From an uncultured delta proteobacterium (GTDB lineage Bacteria; Desulfobacterota; RBG-13-43-22): 64,000 nt of DNA. The stretch spans positions 1,632,001-1,696,000 of the forward strand of contig CAWBOS010000010.1 in the NCBI GenBank assembly GCA_963790475.1, given 5' to 3'. This document shows, in pieces, positions 17,482 to 22,830 of the stretch. Made by a program: the position numbers and the translations under genes. The notes beneath the pieces are model-generated. The model did not search any database, was not told the DNA's origin, and was given only the letters and a program-made list of their open reading frames with translations. Within the stretch, counting starts at the first letter, position 1. The number at the start of each line of letters is the position of its first letter.

Positions 17482-17545
17482 CACTAACACAAGCGTCACC
17501 CGGAGCCGGCTGTTTCGGCGATCGGGTGCACGCGTTTGGTTAGCG
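17482..17545 (-). other. attC site (64 bp)
   Basis: Minus strand CGCTAAC...GCGTGCACCCG...CGGGTGACGC...GTTAGTG. The stop codon of the upstream gene overlaps R''. Confidence 0.85.
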
Positions 17546-18085
17546 GGTTTTCTCATCTTTACCCGTTCCGTCTACGTTACCTATGCCGTACTTGTGGGGC
17601 TCCATGTGCTTGACTTCCTCGGTATGAGCAAAAAGGATAGACGCCAGCAACGTTGTATTGATTTGAAAGAACGTTTTTATGTTCTTTATGCTGTCCATCG
17701 CATCCCTCGGCGGACTCGTGCTTGTCAGTGTTTTGAGCTGAAGGCATTTATCCCTAATACGCTGGGTCTCGAAATTGATACCTTCGAAAGAATGGGCGAA
17801 GTCGTTCCTGATGTTTTTGATAAGCTTCAGGTCTTCAAATTCACTTTGCTCTAGTAGACCTAAATAATAGGCGAGGTTGATTTTAGCGCTCATTGTGGAA
17901 AGGGGTGACATTCCATCAAATAAATCCCTTTCTACCGACTGGTGGTCAATCAGGAAAGCAAGAAGGAGTCGTTCCAACAGCTCTTCGAGGAGAGCGCTTG
18001 ATACTATCGCCGAAGCCCGGTCAGTTTGCTTAAACACCTCCTCAAAAGTCCGGTTCAATTGATCACCAAAACTACCCTCCGACAT
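17540..18085 (-). CDS. MtlR-family (HEPN-fold) cassette protein
   Basis: DR..AIV.SALLE..L, PLST.SAKI.LAY.LGL, IRNDFAH (RxxxxH). Confidence 0.8.
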   Translation of the reverse strand: MSEGSFGDQLNRTFEEVFKQTDRASAIVSSALLEELLERLLLAFLIDHQSVERDLFDGMSPLSTMSAKINLAYYLGLLEQSEFEDLKLIKNIRNDFAHSFEGINFETQRIRDKCLQLKTLTSTSPPRDAMDSIKNIKTFFQINTTLLASILFAHTEEVKHMEPHKYGIGNVDGTGKDEKTR

Positions 18086-18115
18086 CGCAACCTCTTAATT
18101 GAATGTTTACCGCTG

Positions 18116-18376
18116 CTACCTGTGTGTCCCTTCGGTCAGCCGAATTCCTGTGGCGGTGCCAAGATGGAGTTTTCCTGACCTGTTGGGTGTCCGTTCGATC
18201 TCATATTTTGCTCCGCATTGGCATTGGACTCGGTACTCTGCATCACCCGTTCGGTTTCCCAAAAGTTCACGGCATTCGACGCAAAGCCACGCAGCGTTAT
18301 TGCCCCAAACCAGCGCTACAGAATCCTTGAACGGAAGTCCCTCACGGTTCTTAACAAATGTCCTCGTGGTGTTCAT
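18116..18376 (-). CDS. Small Zn-ribbon-like cassette protein
   Basis: CxxC...CxC. Starts just after the cassette GTTAGCG core and a GGAG RBS. Confidence 0.65.
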   Translation of the reverse strand: MNTTRTFVKNREGLPFKDSVALVWGNNAAWLCVECRELLGNRTGDAEYRVQCQCGAKYEIERTPNRSGKLHLGTATGIRLTEGTHR

Positions 18377-18389
18377 TTCTTCTATTCTC

Positions 18390-18478
18390 CGCTAACGTTC
18401 GGAGTGAGCCGCTTCGGGTTGGCCGCAGAGCGAAGCGGCGCGGCTAACCCGAAGCGGCTCTCGACTCCGTTGTTGGAT
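18390..18478 (-). other. attC site (89 bp)
   Basis: Minus strand ATCCAAC...long imperfect palindrome...GTTAGCG. Confidence 0.9.
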
Positions 18479-19110
18479 CATTTCTTGCCGTCTCTCTTCT
18501 CGATCTGTTCCTTCTTTCCCGGTGGCAGAGAATCATAGAGTGTGTCGATCTGCTTGGGTTGCGTGATCATGGCATCTGCAATGAAGTTGACCAACCTGGC
18601 GAGATGGACGGCGGTCTCGGGGTCGTCGCGCAAGTCAATCTCTCCAGGATGCACAGCGTCATTCCCAACAACGCGGACAATGTCGAGGCTCTTCTGAATG
18701 CGGGGATTAAGGCCCTTCTGGACCAGAGCGGCAATGTCTTGGTTGATGTTCTTGCCCGGCTCGCCAAGGTGAGCACAGAGCTTCTGGATGCAAAGACGGA
18801 GCAGCGCGGCGGCACCACGGGGGGACCGGTTGACAATGTTTCGAGCTTCCTCGAAGTCCCGTCGAATGTCTTCTGGGAGATCTGGATTCGGCATAGGCGC
18901 AGTGGATGAATCCGGGAACACCATGTTGCCTGCCCACCAGATGCTGTACTTAGAGCAGTGGCTACACTGGCACACGTGCAGGCCCTTGACCAATAAATGA
19001 TTACTGGGGATCCAGCACCCGTCGCCCCAGACCTGTCTGGCGTACGGGTTGCAGAAAGGGCAGTTAAAGGATGTTCCTTGGAACTTCGGCGGTGTAAACG
19101 GTTGAGTCAT
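18478..19110 (-). CDS. DUF4145 (HEPN) protein with N-terminal Zn finger
   Basis: CPFC/CSHC, EA......SPR.AAALLR..., R..GNDAVH. Confidence 0.88.
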   Translation of the reverse strand: MTQPFTPPKFQGTSFNCPFCNPYARQVWGDGCWIPSNHLLVKGLHVCQCSHCSKYSIWWAGNMVFPDSSTAPMPNPDLPEDIRRDFEEARNIVNRSPRGAAALLRLCIQKLCAHLGEPGKNINQDIAALVQKGLNPRIQKSLDIVRVVGNDAVHPGEIDLRDDPETAVHLARLVNFIADAMITQPKQIDTLYDSLPPGKKEQIEKRDGKK

Positions 19111-19127
19111 CTATCATTCCTCTCTTG

Positions 19128-19180
19128 ATCCAACGCCTGAGTTAAGCCGCGCCGCGAGGCGTCGGCTTGAACGAAATGTT
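19128..19180 (-). other. attC site, interrupted in R'' (remainder at 21621-21627)
   Basis: Rejoined site reads GCCTAACATTTCGTTCAAGCCGACGCCTCGCGGCGCGGCTTAACTCAGGCGTTGGAT. Confidence 0.9.
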
Positions 19181-19339
19181 CAAGTAAGCCGCTGTGCGGC
19201 AGAACCGTTTCTATGTAATCCTTCCTGAAAAATCTCTTCAGAAGTCCATTCGATAGGACGCATACCGTTTAGTCCAGTATGATACTTCAAACCCCCTCCT
19301 CATAGGAAGGGGAAATCCATCCTTATAAGGAGAAGTATC

Positions 19340-20227
19340 ATGATGAACAATTGGTATGACAAAACGATCCAAGCTCTTCAACTCAACGGTAAAGGGGAAC
19401 GCACCCAGGAAGCCTACGCCCGCTCCGTCCGCATGCTCACCCAGTTTTATAACAAAACTCCTGATTCCATCAGCGAACAGGAACTTCAGGATTATTTTCT
19501 TCAACGGAAAAATGTCGATAAGTGGGCCCCCAATACCATGCGGATATGCTATTGCGGCATACGCTTCTTTTTTGAAAAAGTACTCCAGCGCAACTGGCAC
19601 ATCCTCGGAATCCTCCGAGCCCAAACCGAACGAAGACTCCCGGCCGTCTTGAGCGTTGAAGAAGTCCGTAAACTCCTGGCCCAGGTTAAAACCTTCCAGA
19701 ACTATGCCTATCTTTCCACCGTCTACTCCTGCGGTCTGAGACTTCAGGAGGGACTCTATCTCGAAGTCTCCGATATCGATAGTGACCGGATGATGATCCA
19801 TATCCACCGGGGCAAAGGCGCCAAAGATCGCTATGTCCCTCTCCCCCAATCCACTCTCAGCCTGCTCCGTCGCTATTGGGTCACCCACCGTCATCCTGCC
19901 CTCCTTTTTCCAGCCATCGGCCGAACCAGACAAGGCGTCAAGGAAGCTAAAACGCCCATGGCCAAAAGCAGTGTCCAAGGGGCCTTCCGTCGAGCCAAGT
20001 TTGCTGCCGGAATCCACAAAAAAATGGTCTCTGTTCATACCCTCCGGCACTCTTATGCCACCCATCTGCTTGAGGCCGGCGTCAACCTTCGGGTCATCCA
20101 AAGATACATGGGCCACGGCCAATTGGAAACGACCATGGTCTATTTGCATCTCACTCAAAAAGGTCAAGAGGATGCCTGCCAGTTGATCAATCAGGTGATG
20201 GGGGGCTTAGACCATGACCACCATTAA
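19340..20227 (+). CDS. Site-specific tyrosine recombinase (SAM-like N-domain, IntI/Xer-related)
   Basis: YSCGLR, GKGAKDR, HTLRHSYATHLLE, MGH..LETT.VY. Confidence 0.95.
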   Translation: MMNNWYDKTIQALQLNGKGERTQEAYARSVRMLTQFYNKTPDSISEQELQDYFLQRKNVDKWAPNTMRICYCGIRFFFEKVLQRNWHILGILRAQTERRLPAVLSVEEVRKLLAQVKTFQNYAYLSTVYSCGLRLQEGLYLEVSDIDSDRMMIHIHRGKGAKDRYVPLPQSTLSLLRRYWVTHRHPALLFPAIGRTRQGVKEAKTPMAKSSVQGAFRRAKFAAGIHKKMVSVHTLRHSYATHLLEAGVNLRVIQRYMGHGQLETTMVYLHLTQKGQEDACQLINQVMGGLDHDHH

Positions 20228-21314
20228 TGAGATCTTTCGAACCTTCGGCCCCCAATACCTGGGGCGCTACGGTCAGACTATGCCTAAAATACACCGCCAG
20301 GTCATCGAGGCCATCATCGGCTGCCGTACCGAAGCCTGCGGCCTCGTCCTATACCAGTGTGAAAAATGCGGCCAGTCCCATCTGATCTATCGTTCCTGCG
20401 GCAATCGCCATTGCCCCACTTGTCAACACCATAAAACCCAACAGTGGTTGGATAAACAGATAAAGCATCAACTTCCCGGACATCATTTCATGATGACCTT
20501 TACCGTCCCCGAACAACTGCGCCGCTTTATACGGAAAAATCAGAGGGTGGCTTATTCCGCCTTGTTCAAAGCCTCCTCCGAGGCCATCAAAAAGCTGGCT
20601 CCGGACGAAAAATACATCGGCGGTGATCTTCCGGGATTCCTCGGGGTCCTTCATACCTGGGGACGTACCTTGGAGTATCACCCCCATATCCATTACATCG
20701 TCCCCGGCGGAGCCCTCTCCACCACTGACGGTCTCTGGCATCCCTCAAGGATCGATTTTTATCTCCCGGTCAGAGCCCTCTCCAAAATCTTTAAGGCCAA
20801 GTTCAAAAAGGCCATGAAAGAAGTCGGTCTCTTCGAGCAAATCCCTACTGAGGTCTGGCAGATCGACTGGAACGTCAACTCTCAAGCCGTAGGTTCCTCC
20901 GAAGCCAGCCTAAAATACCTCGCCCCTTATGTCTTCAAAGTGGCGATCTCCAATTCCCGCATCCTCAAGGTGGAAAACAACACCGTCTTCTTCCGATACA
21001 CCAAACCTCATAGCCATCGGTTGAGGACTATGGCCCTCGGTTCCATGGAATTCCTCCGCCGTTTCCTTCAGCATGTCCTGCCCACCGGATTCATGAAAAT
21101 CCGCTATTACGGCTTCATGAACCCCAATTGCTCGGTCCCTTTCGAAAGAATATCTACCCTCATTCAAATGGCCTATTCCTTCGTCTTGAAGATGCCCGAA
21201 TATCAGCAAAGCCCTTCTCCAACTCCCATCTGTCCCAACTGCGGCGGAACCCTCAGATACCTCGTATCCTTCATCCCCGGTCTCACTCCTCAATTGACCC
21301 TGGACAGTTCTTGA
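20214..21314 (+). CDS. IS91-family transposase (Zn-binding + Y2 domain)
   Basis: SCGNRHCPTCQ, HTWG..L.YHPHIH (HUH), YLAPY, HVLP.GF.KIRYYG. Confidence 0.95.
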   Translation: MTTINEIFRTFGPQYLGRYGQTMPKIHRQVIEAIIGCRTEACGLVLYQCEKCGQSHLIYRSCGNRHCPTCQHHKTQQWLDKQIKHQLPGHHFMMTFTVPEQLRRFIRKNQRVAYSALFKASSEAIKKLAPDEKYIGGDLPGFLGVLHTWGRTLEYHPHIHYIVPGGALSTTDGLWHPSRIDFYLPVRALSKIFKAKFKKAMKEVGLFEQIPTEVWQIDWNVNSQAVGSSEASLKYLAPYVFKVAISNSRILKVENNTVFFRYTKPHSHRLRTMALGSMEFLRRFLQHVLPTGFMKIRYYGFMNPNCSVPFERISTLIQMAYSFVLKMPEYQQSPSPTPICPNCGGTLRYLVSFIPGLTPQLTLDSS

Positions 21315-21998
21315 ACGGTCTTCCTAAGACCCCCTTCTTAAATCCAAAATGTCAAAGAACTAAAGCGGTAGGGACTCCTATGTCCAGAGTCCTAAAAATC
21401 GATGGGTGCTTTTATCTGATCAGTGAAAAAAGGTATTGCCGTGCTTCGTAAGGTAAGTTCTTAGTCCTTTTCCTGTTCCCTGAGTCTATTTATAAGCTTT
21501 TTATCCTCTCCTCAGTTCGTCCCCCTTCGAACCTTTACCCTTTATAGATCGTCATTATTTATCCGGGCTTCTTGAACAATGGATTGAAACGACCTTTCAG
21601 GATCGTCTCAATCCTTATTGGTTAGGCCTTTGTGTCATGACTAGCACGGGCGATGTAAGGCCTGGGACGGAATCGAAAAAGAACAAAGATGCCAGTAATG
21701 AACAAAGTGGCACCCAGCCAAGAAAGTTGAGAACTTGGCGCTGCCGTAAAAAAGTGAAAATACACCATCGGCGCAACGCCGCTCAGGCCACTAACCGCCC
21801 TGCCTTTTGAGCCGTCCCGCCATGTCCACCCCAGCACACTGATCCACATCTTGGCTCGGGCATGCACTCTTGAACGTGCAGAGCCTTTGGACGGAGATTT
21901 CGGCGATGGCGGATGAGTTCTAGGCTCACTCACATCTCGGCGAGCCACCACCTGATGCGCGGCACAGCCGTTGACAATCCGCCGGATGCCACAACTCA

Positions 21999-22745
21999 TC
22001 ACCGCGTCATCAGCGCGAACACACCCCAACCTAGGTATTCACGTGTGTAAGCGGCGTAGCGCTCGGGTTCCGAGGTCAGTTTGGCTCGAACATCTTTCGC
22101 GAACTCGTCGTCGGGATTAGCTTCAAGCCATCGGCGCATGGTGAGCCATTTAGCCGCCTCGTATCTGTCCCAGCCGTCTTGGTCTGCCAAAACCATTTCC
22201 ACGACGTCGTAGTCAAGGTGGCCGAAAGACGCGAGAAGTTCTGGAAGCGTGAGAAAGTCGGAGATTGAGCCGGCAAGACACCCCTTGGCAACATCTTCCG
22301 TCGGCGGTAACTGCCGCCAGTAGGGCTCGCCGATGAGGATGATCCCTCCGGTGCGGAGGCTCTGCGCCAGAAGCTCGATAGTGCCGATGACTCCCCCAGC
22401 GATCCATGTAGCACCGACACAGGCTGCCACACCGGCCTTGTCGTCCGAGACGTAGCCGGTAGCATCGCCATGGATGAACTTGACTTGATCGGCGACGCCG
22501 AGTTCTTCAGCGCGGAGTTTCGCTTGCTCGGTGAACAACTGGCTCATGTCGATGCCGGTGCCGATGACTCCGTAATCGCGTGCCCAGGTGCACAGCATCT
22601 CCCCCGAACCGCTGCCGAGGTCGAGCACTCGGGTCCCCGTTTCCAGACGCAGCGCCGCGCCGAGAGTGGCGAGCTTTTCGGGTGTGAACGGGTTATGGAT
22701 GCGGTGAGCACTTTCGGTGATGTTGAATATCCGTGGAATGTCCAT
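21999..22745 (-). CDS. yjhP: Class I SAM-dependent methyltransferase (YjhP-like), cassette gene
   Basis: MDIPRIF.I.ES.HRIHNPFT, LDLGSGSGEMLCTWARD, WDRYEAAKWLTMRRWLEANPDD. Confidence 0.85.
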   Translation of the reverse strand: MDIPRIFNITESAHRIHNPFTPEKLATLGAALRLETGTRVLDLGSGSGEMLCTWARDYGVIGTGIDMSQLFTEQAKLRAEELGVADQVKFIHGDATGYVSDDKAGVAACVGATWIAGGVIGTIELLAQSLRTGGIILIGEPYWRQLPPTEDVAKGCLAGSISDFLTLPELLASFGHLDYDVVEMVLADQDGWDRYEAAKWLTMRRWLEANPDDEFAKDVRAKLTSEPERYAAYTREYLGWGVFALMTR

Positions 22746-22786
22746 TTCGGGAAATCTCCTTATGGGTGTGAATAGATTCGGTCACG

Positions 22787-22830
22787 GCCTAACAAAATAT
22801 TGAATAGTTTCTTTTCAATTACCAAGAAAT
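22787..22830 (-). other. attI-like or secondary site heading the array
   Basis: Minus strand ATTCAAT-ATTTT-GTTAGGC in AT-rich DNA, with no attC palindrome. Confidence 0.5.

Follow-up and report, generated by a model that had tools for sequence, protein, structure and literature searches.

An IS91-family insertion sequence with a tyrosine recombinase gene located in an integron attC site, and the probable preference of its clade for such sites

The closest described relatives of the element analyzed here are the insertion sequences (IS) IS91, IS801 and IS1294, whose transposases combine a Zn-binding N-terminus, an HUH motif and two tyrosines; they insert without target duplication, at a target tetranucleotide that abuts the right end and resembles the one at the left end, and they leave right-end fragments and deletion derivatives. 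ISfinder also lists an IS91 subgroup with an integrase open reading frame (ORF), for which we know of no role. An element of this kind is present in a 64,000-nt stretch of DNA from an uncultured delta proteobacterium (contig CAWBOS010000010.1, positions 1,632,001 to 1,696,000; this whole stretch is called the window below), where it shares the listed features and interrupts a recombination site (attC) of an integron cassette array. Compared to IS91, IS801 and IS1294, it has an additional tyrosine recombinase gene, catalytically conserved as judged by its residues, its target word is GTTA or GTTG (xAAC on the opposite strand), not GTTC or CTTG, and its clade strongly prefers a folded attC and one of its strands. 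For IS801, a passage in PMC3189936 describes target tetranucleotides resembling the left-end tetranucleotide and a right end that is the essential one, and a rolling-circle model with single-stranded DNA (ssDNA) circles is outlined for IS91-type elements in a passage of PMC5714925.

Insertion into attC has been described for unrelated elements. According to a section of PMC9229058, elements of the IS1111-attC group (IS110 family) and group IIC-attC introns insert specifically into attC in one orientation; their enzymes, a DEDD transposase and a reverse transcriptase with a ribozyme, respectively, are not related to those of the window element. The same section mentions ISShvi3 from a Shewanella integron, which is IS91-like and “adjacent to an attC site”, its authors having found no IS that interrupts an attC (PMC9229058). 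“Adjacent to an attC” is how an insertion right after the R'' box would appear to an attC finder. Our literature search, with ISfinder and TnPedia outside its range, yielded no paper stating that integrase-bearing IS91 elements target attC. Both IS1111-attC elements and group IIC-attC introns enter attC at positions other than the one used by the window element.

Gene cassettes and the integron integrase IntI are the other natural comparison. The junctions of the window element are at a core-site GTT, as in cassettes, its end junction can fold as an attC-like two-stem hairpin, and its recombinase is nearer by sequence to IntI than to any other recombinase of solved structure. On the other hand, the element has its own transposase and ends, its recombinase lacks the insert characteristic of IntI and scores below the IntI cut-off, and the strand entered by its clade is the top one, at R'', in contrast to IntI, which acts on the bottom strand of attC at R'. 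IntI recombines cassettes, and XerCD integrates ssDNA of the CTX phage, by one strand exchange that is resolved by replication; in the phage, the substrate of XerCD is a folded single-stranded hairpin, and the recombinases, which have no IntI insert, are those of the host and act on a dif target.

Joining 19128–19177 to 21621–27, the sequences on the two sides of the element (Table 1), yields 57 nt that fold into a single hairpin with AAC/GTT at the base (–11.3 kcal/mol) and have all features by which attC is defined, that is, RYYYAAC...GTTRRRY, paired R and L boxes, a length of 50–140 nt and a location at a cassette boundary. The larger part of this attC closely resembles the aadA1 attC read in a plasmid locus (L080). 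The cassettes are on the minus strand and the element on the plus strand, hence the element is inverted relative to the cassettes and located at R''; the stop codon of the ORF at 21622–22029 falls within the R'' box GCCTAAC. In the predicted fold, the cassette (top) strand is interrupted right behind the AAC of R'', where the basal stem borders on the unpaired spacer.

The empty site has a natural counterpart. Metagenome runs were searched as assembled Logan contigs, and a 492-nt contig from a soil metagenome of another study (run X4) joins 19177 to 21621, skipping exactly the 2,443 bp of the element with a 3-nt ambiguity, and differs from the window at three positions over 288 nt. Its similarity to the window stops at 19132 (AAC/GTT of R'), with other sequence or a different cassette beyond; therefore, the uninterrupted site exists in nature and acts as a cassette boundary. 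A second, 100% identical copy of the element resides on another contig of the same genome (G000:C11, locus L002), the identity extending exactly from 19178 to 21620/21 and being followed by divergence; this copy splits an XRE/HTH_3 gene, whose open frames on both sides match profile positions 2–26 and 28–55. The junction ambiguity, 3 nt in the window alone, is reduced to 1 nt once this copy is compared, and alignment with the second copy and with the natural empty site establishes precise insertion without target duplication. An earlier note on this DNA, made from the letters alone, had held that precise deletion of the element restores a canonical 57-nt attC and that the element is inverted and sits in R''; the former agrees with the hairpin fold and the natural contig, and the latter with the cassettes and further attCs on the minus strand and the stop codon inside R''.

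By its sequence, the region 19178–21620 is a recently active IS91-family IS of the subgroup in which a tyrosine recombinase gene is located upstream of the Y2 transposase gene and overlaps it. Its activity is considered recent because, besides two 100% identical copies, the genome contains a truncated one, a deletion derivative of 424 bp and a right end on its own. The two ORFs overlap by 14 nt. The transposase matches PF14319 and PF04986 with E-values of 6.5e-29 and 2.8e-54, respectively, and scores 373.8 bits with the NCBIfam model NF033538 (cut-off 125); no variation is seen in its Cys cluster, in H158/H160 or in Y235/Y239 across all 23 aligned sequences. The element is thus an IS with two genes of its own and IS91-type ends, and not a “self-mobilizing cassette”, as the earlier note had called it; a cassette in the strict sense is a promoterless gene with an attC of its own, is moved by IntI and occurs only at attI or attC.

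The end features that had been noted from the letters (GTT triplets, GTTCAAG, and the left and right hairpins) are all recovered by direct reading. The GTT triplets bounding the element are at 19178–80 and 21621–23, and the right end consists of CTTGAAC (21571–77), AAT, GGATTGA (21581–87), A, ACGA, a 10-nt loop, TCGT, C, TCAATCC (21608–14), TTATTG (21615–20) and the GTT, so that, toward the tip, the subterminal repeat is separated by 3 nt from a two-part hairpin, behind which 6 nt form a tail. If the two termini were joined, they could fold into a long hairpin with a 7-bp basal stem that ends with AAC/GTT and, above it, an internal loop and a second stem capped by a loop. The complementarity of CTTGAAC and GTTCAAG, also proposed earlier, is real, and the end pairing is retained via compensatory changes in distant clades: GTTGAAC is found with GTTCAAC in the Cloacimonadales and gammaproteobacterial clades, and ATTCAAG with CTTGAAT in a Nitrospirota sublineage. 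This covariation fits base pairing in ssDNA, and fits equally well two sites for one protein, which is short of proof of the hairpin. The stem of the left-end hairpin is GCTGC/GCAGC in the Cloacimonadales clade.

Protein-guided scans for relatives provided 63 loci in species genomes, spanning Thermodesulfobacteriota, Nitrospirota, Cloacimonadales, Binatia, Planctomycetota and others, and, in metagenomes, the best 80 of 387 loci. Among 132 loci of the window’s clade, conserved ends were found on both sides in 55, at the right only in 29 and at the left only in 28; the right-end hairpin with its tail is retained in 84 of the 132 related loci scanned. Flanks were counted in genomes other than one multi-copy Nitrospirota genome. 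In 66 unique right flanks, the first position is always G, the second is T (59) or A (7), the third is T in 65, and the following four are A (52), G (44), G (37) and C (36), yielding the consensus GTTAGGC (G-W-T-A-G-G-C); 58 flanks start with GTT, the triplet that also starts the left end of the element, and seven with GAT. In 60 unique left flanks, the preferred letters are T at –16 (40), G at –13 (42), C at –12 (42), T at –11 (46), A at –8 (48) and T at –2 (43), and the consensus, GTCSGCTGCA-N7, is the complement of the L'' arm in aadA-type attCs of annotated integrons.

Empty sites were then rebuilt computationally, and 35 unique sites with at least 70 nt of left flank were tested. In 16 of these 35 insertion sites, the L boxes form an exact, correctly spaced stem of 6 bp or more, vs. 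75 of 3,616 control AAC sites from the same loci. The single-hairpin attC criterion is passed by 19 of the 35 sites vs. 56 of 1,420 controls (3.9%; controls are again AAC sites from the same loci), with the binomial p about 5e-18. A cassette-sense open frame of at least 60 codons ending at most 40 nt from the junction is observed at 20 of 49 sites, compared to 52 of 350 controls. A few further sites (L022, L024, L039, L145, L162) are attC-like by eye and fail the strict criteria, and those of L002, L020, L025, L085, L106 and L141 are not attC-like. An initial attC scan requiring near-perfect R''/R' complementarity gave nothing useful, and constrained folding energy did not separate insertion sites from GC-rich controls; the L-box and single-hairpin criteria were used instead. 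As a weak indicator of the strand, the 5' arm has more unpaired bases in 15 of 19 sites. According to the L'' consensus of the left flank and the ORF-end test, the window’s clade uses only the R'' side.

Taken at the level of the clade, these elements very probably prefer attC sites, at a fixed position and in a fixed orientation. The flank survey of integrase–IS91 pairs for attC and GTT targets that the earlier note had called for thus indicates a trait of the clade rather than an accident of the window, and the pattern by which the note would have abandoned its idea, that is, insertion at random GTTC/CTTG sites with no conserved terminal hairpin, was looked for in the window’s clade and is not what is observed there.

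Several configurations involve the ends alone. At the edge of a metagenome contig (L130, positions 66–80) a right end runs straight into a left end, head to tail, and the right flanks of L056 and L153 show an element inserted beside a solo right-end hairpin. It seems that the junction of the right end with GTT itself serves as a target, or that tandem copies arise.

The recombinase scores below the NCBIfam cut-offs of all models considered, with 180.7 bits for XerA, 175.8 for IntI (TIGR02249, cut-off 265), 152 for XerD (329.6) and 140.5 for XerC (335); for comparison, a true IntI (L040) scores 444.4, and the XerD of the same genome, 381.9. R134, K159, H233, R236, H259 and Y268 are invariant in 23 of 23 recombinases, and so the enzyme is predicted to act on DNA. 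Among proteins of solved structure, the best sequence match is VchIntIA, an integron integrase (E 4e-33), with XerA and XerD ranking behind it, and the recombinase is 32% identical to IntI1 over 290 residues. The IntI-specific insert between patches II and III is missing: the IntI model is matched as two stretches, 9–177 and 235–306, and the alignment to IntI1 has 39 gap positions, mostly in the region of this insert. The earlier note had suggested a phylogeny of the recombinase against IntI, and in it 27 IS91-linked recombinases form their own clade apart from nine IntI and two XerC/D sequences (support 100/97; an unrooted tree with few outgroups); with just two Xer sequences and no root, the sister group, IntI or Xer, is not read from it. 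The separate clade, the score below the IntI cut-off and the missing insert all speak against taking this recombinase for an IntI. In most loci of sufficient reach, the recombinase gene is the first of the two. A predicted complex of the recombinase and the transposase scored 0.23, below the mark, with two alignments tried.

A different arrangement is seen in a contig of a Desulforhabdus metagenome-assembled genome (MAG; L040, positions 363–2789), where the true IntI gene mentioned above (444 bits, TIGR02249) is located directly upstream of an IS91-family transposase gene on the same strand.

Some related elements reside outside attC. One Nitrospirota genome has ten 99.9% identical copies at CAAC/AAAC sites beside a shared motif of about 33 nt, and none of the 11 Nitrospirota sites passes the attC criterion. 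The Cloacimonadales chromosome carries thirteen copies of a 41%-identical element (L059–L071), with TAAC at the site in 12 of the 13 and with no attC features. The integrase reading frame is open in the aligned copy of both sets. The flank also starts with A in the second copy of L030 and in L038, whose left end is ATT and right repeat GAAT, and in Nitrospirota the base before TTCAAG is all that distinguishes L031 from its 99.9% identical sister copies.

The surroundings of these copies have structure of their own. In the Nitrospirota MAG loci (L029–L037, L052, L056), most copies are located right after the variable motif of about 33 nt (GTTTCCATT..ATGTAATTTTCAAC on the active strand), which includes a small hairpin with a covarying stem; a CRISPR interpretation of these flanks was considered and rejected, as the motif is present only once per locus. 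In Cloacimonadales, four or five of the thirteen copies are within a repeated two-hairpin motif.

Elements of this type are also found in integrons of plasmids and gammaproteobacteria. The Escherichia coli IncC plasmid NZ_LT985243.1 carries an integrase–IS91 pair (37.5% recombinase identity) between aadA1 and qacEdelta1, oriented opposite to the cassettes and located directly after the R'' GTCTAAC of attC_aadA1. A search of 72,556 plasmid records found this element in one; part of the query was matched in 2,516 of them, and in the other plasmid records listed both flanks of the element match within about 85 bp, that is, the aadA1 attC is uninterrupted. Another E. coli IncC plasmid, NZ_AP018145.1, has a different integrase–IS91 pair between aac(6')-IIa and aadA4; this one is oriented like the cassettes and positioned precisely at the R' GTT of attC_aac(6')-IIa. 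A Salinivibrio element is found in an attC-like site among small same-strand ORFs. In a Photobacterium locus (L081, positions 1146–2618), a group II intron reverse transcriptase gene is 0.8 kb away from an integrase–IS91 element, so that two possible kinds of attC invaders are neighbors.

Finally, an integrase-less IS91-family element of about 1.5 kb is present in 11 IncN plasmid records, representing one insertion event, at the R' GTT of attC_aadA2. In Klebsiella pneumoniae pTHC11-2 and the ten further records (L174, positions 1333–2815) it is located between aadA2 and qacEdelta1, downstream of blaIMP-6, in cassette orientation. There is no space in it for an integrase gene, yet its left end, subterminal repeat, hairpin and short tail are laid out as in the integrase-bearing elements, and the repeats at its ends, GTTGAAC/GTTCAAC, agree with the consensus of core sites. 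Therefore, the end architecture and the attC core target are independent of a recombinase encoded by the element, although IntI1 of class 1 integrons could substitute for it. Related lineages have entered clinical class 1 integrons, and two clinical resistance plasmids are among the carriers of an element at such a site.

As to which enzyme performs cleavage and joining, on which strand, and what the recombinase contributes, we infer a Y2-catalyzed insertion into folded attC DNA with the recombinase as an accessory, a reading to which we give an even chance. The Y2 transposase would first act at the right (ori) end, nicking the minus strand behind the flanking xAAC, replication would displace the nicked strand, and the transposase would cut again after the element’s own ...CTTGAAC at the left (ter) end and join the single strand into a target cut after xAAC. 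A folded attC would be favored as the target because it copies the geometry of the end junction of the element (a 7-bp stem with AAC/GTT at its end, then an internal loop and another stem with its terminal loop), and the recombinase would participate in target capture, resolution of multimers or circles, or second-strand exchange, without defining the insertion site. The transposase is favored over the recombinase by the integrase-less IncN element with the same ends and an attC GTT target, by the integrase-bearing Nitrospirota and Cloacimonadales copies that do without attCs, and by the co-occurrence of A in the flank with the left end ATT and the right repeat GAAT. Moreover, GTT at both junctions is the ordinary IS91-family layout under the tetranucleotide rule given for IS801 and IS91 in a passage of PMC3189936. 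Several points weigh in the opposite direction. The attC criteria are our own and not those of IntegronFinder; the sites are not all independent, as L086 and L088 share one attC, and L110 and L111, another; the integrase-less case goes back to one insertion, and the IntI1 of the integron concerned could have been the source of recombinase; and the tetranucleotide alone cannot account for the attC enrichment or for the use of one strand. As to the recombinase itself, none of the 23 sequences has lost any of the six catalytic residues, its gene overlaps that of the transposase and is always linked to it across phyla, its closest solved relative is VchIntIA, and the junction is exactly where a tyrosine recombinase would be expected to cut a folded core site, at the arm/spacer border.

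Most of the latter points also suit a less probable alternative with two enzymes, close to what the earlier note had proposed, in which Y2 would make an ssDNA circle, the element’s own recombinase would exchange the attC-like end hairpin with a folded attC at G/TT, and replication would resolve the product, in analogy to the CTX phage and XerCD in the use of a folded ssDNA hairpin, a Xer-type enzyme without the IntI insert and one-strand exchange. The junction hairpin is kept by compensatory changes in four clades and laid out like a recombinase core site, any attC recombination in a genome without an IntI above the cut-off would need the enzyme of the element, the single-base difference of L031 before TTCAAG agrees with cleavage between N and TT, the second flank position is limited to T or A (GWT, which is also the secondary-site rule of IntI), and a bare tetranucleotide leaves the exclusive use of the R'' side in the window’s clade unexplained. 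At the same time, this recombinase lacks the insert with which IntI reads extrahelical bases and forms a clade separate from IntI, the integrase-less relative shares the ends and the attC GTT target, copies with an intact integrase have spread at plain xAAC sites, and the end layout is the ordinary IS91 one. Hence, of the proposal in the earlier note, the precise position of an integrase–IS91 element at an attC core stands, and the suggested integration by the recombinase is weakened by the ordinary GTT layout, the copies away from attC in L002, Nitrospirota and Cloacimonadales, and the integrase-less relative at attC_aadA2. A more elaborate form, rather doubtful in our opinion, is that of hybrid “cassette-transposons”, with an HUH-made ssDNA circle having attC-mimic ends and a portable IntI-like recombinase without the IntI insert that recombines the mimic with a folded attC, the strand choice (R'' top or R' bottom) being set by the hairpin asymmetry of the lineage; if true, IntI would be joined by another, independent family of ssDNA recombinases that act on integrons in a structure-specific way and can work in IntI-free hosts, and the elements would be a possible evolutionary link from rolling-circle transposons to the integron system. 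It is improbable that there is no true attC targeting and only the GTTA/GTTG tetranucleotide is needed, insertions in attC persisting as harmless while attC cores happen to hold the word: the target word is indeed short, insertions between cassettes disrupt no gene, and the six non-attC-like sites and the Nitrospirota and Cloacimonadales sets agree with this, but the flank consensus reaches 7 nt to the right and about 16 nt to the left, the hairpin criterion is passed by 19 of 35 insertion sites against 3.9% of controls, attCs are a tiny fraction of genomic GTTA words, and attC has the word on both strands, yet only the R'' side is taken by the window’s clade. Very improbable, finally, is the movement of the element as a cassette by a host integron integrase, with the end hairpin serving as attC. 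The plasmid cases L083 and L174, in cassette orientation exactly at the R' G/TT of a class 1 integron with intI1, would suit it, as would the GTTCAAC/GTTGAAC end repeats of their clades, which fit RYYYAAC/GTTRRRY, and the presence of IntI in six of 21 genomes of the same class as the window’s genome. However, no IntI above the cut-off was found among the proteins of the latter, the top match to the IntI model being the recombinase of the element; elements of the window’s clade are inverted and at R'' in all cases, a place other than that of cassette insertion by IntI, the second copy is in a gene without attC, and the CTTGAAC/GTTCAAG repeats of this clade do not fit the core consensus.

The remaining features of the window and of the genome are as follows. 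On the minus strand, the array consists of the GTTAGGC core, a methyltransferase ORF, the ORF at 22029–21622, the interrupted attC, the DUF4145 ORF with its attC, and the MtlR-like ORF with its attC. This array (17482–22793; three recognizable attCs, CALIN-like) starts at the lone GTTAGGC core beside a radical-SAM-like gene on the opposite strand, and no clear attC was found between the methyltransferase ORF and the ORF at 22029–21622. An intI gene is found neither in the window nor elsewhere in the genome. A scan of the element for sigma-70 promoters and terminators gave counts not above those in shuffled sequence. A 309-codon ORF on the minus strand (19238–20167), antisense to the recombinase gene, is most likely spurious.

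Three kinds of partial copies are present in the same genome. The 424-bp derivative (L004/L007; G000:C10:140841-141264; in L004, about 1500–1925) comes from an 83%-identical relative and has both ends and an internal deletion, so that the first 40 or so codons of the recombinase are fused to the right end; in L004 the right flank is GTTAGGCC, and the left flank is a hairpin-forming stretch whose R' has apparently decayed (GTA). The truncated copy (L003, G000:C6:609749-610439) consists of a 3' transposase fragment and the right end, flanked by GTTGGGT just past a stop codon on the opposite strand, and the solo right end (L005, G000:C12:796917-796983) is 67 bp long, flanked by GTTAGCT. The last two may be one-ended or decayed products.

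Table 1. Coordinates of the element and of the interrupted cassette array (window positions).
Feature	Position	Strand	Basis or remark
Last attC, after the MtlR-like ORF 17540-18085	17482..17545	-	Direct reading and Pfam
Next attC, after the DUF4145 cassette ORF 18478-19110	18390..18478	-	Direct reading and Pfam
Larger part of the interrupted attC (R', L', loop, L'' of the top strand = minus strand)	19128..19177	-	Direct reading; folds with 21621-27
IS91-family element, 2,443 bp	19178..21620	+	Bounds from the identical copy L002 and the X4 contig
Left terminal repeat GTTCAAGTAAGCC	19178..19190	+	Begins with GTTCAAG (19178-84); complementary to 21566-21577
Left-end hairpin GCCGC-TGT-GCGGC	19188..19200	+	Stem kept in relatives
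Tyrosine recombinase ORF, 295 aa, Xer/IntI-like	19340..20227	+	Pfam PF00589 (Phage_integrase) and PF13495 (SAM_4)
Y2 HUH transposase ORF, 366 aa	20214..21314	+	PF04986 (Y2_Tnp) and PF14319 (Zn_Tnp_IS91)
Right subterminal repeat GGCTTCTTGAAC	21566..21577	+	Includes CTTGAAC (21571-77)
Right-end hairpin GGATTGA.ACGA / TCGT.TCAATCC with 6-nt tail TTATTG	21581..21620	+	Direct reading
R'' box of the interrupted attC, GTTAGGC on plus / GCCTAAC on the cassette strand	21621..21627	-	Direct reading
GTTAGGC core at the array start, upstream of the methyltransferase cassette	22787..22793	-	Direct reading; intI not adjacent

Gene capture behind multi-resistance is mainly the work of integrons, whose recombination sites are a known homing target of only a few mobile elements. 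The widespread IS91 lineage described here, found in environmental Thermodesulfobacteriota and their relatives, with related elements in class 1 integrons of IncC and IncN plasmids, constitutes a new class of integron parasite. Its insertion separates R'' (or R') from the rest of attC, which should freeze or fuse cassettes, and puts a rolling-circle element, able to mobilize adjacent DNA, inside resistance arrays. The attC context gives the long-unexplained integrase of IS91 members a concrete, testable setting, and the element is a natural experiment on the recognition of folded attC DNA by ssDNA enzymes.

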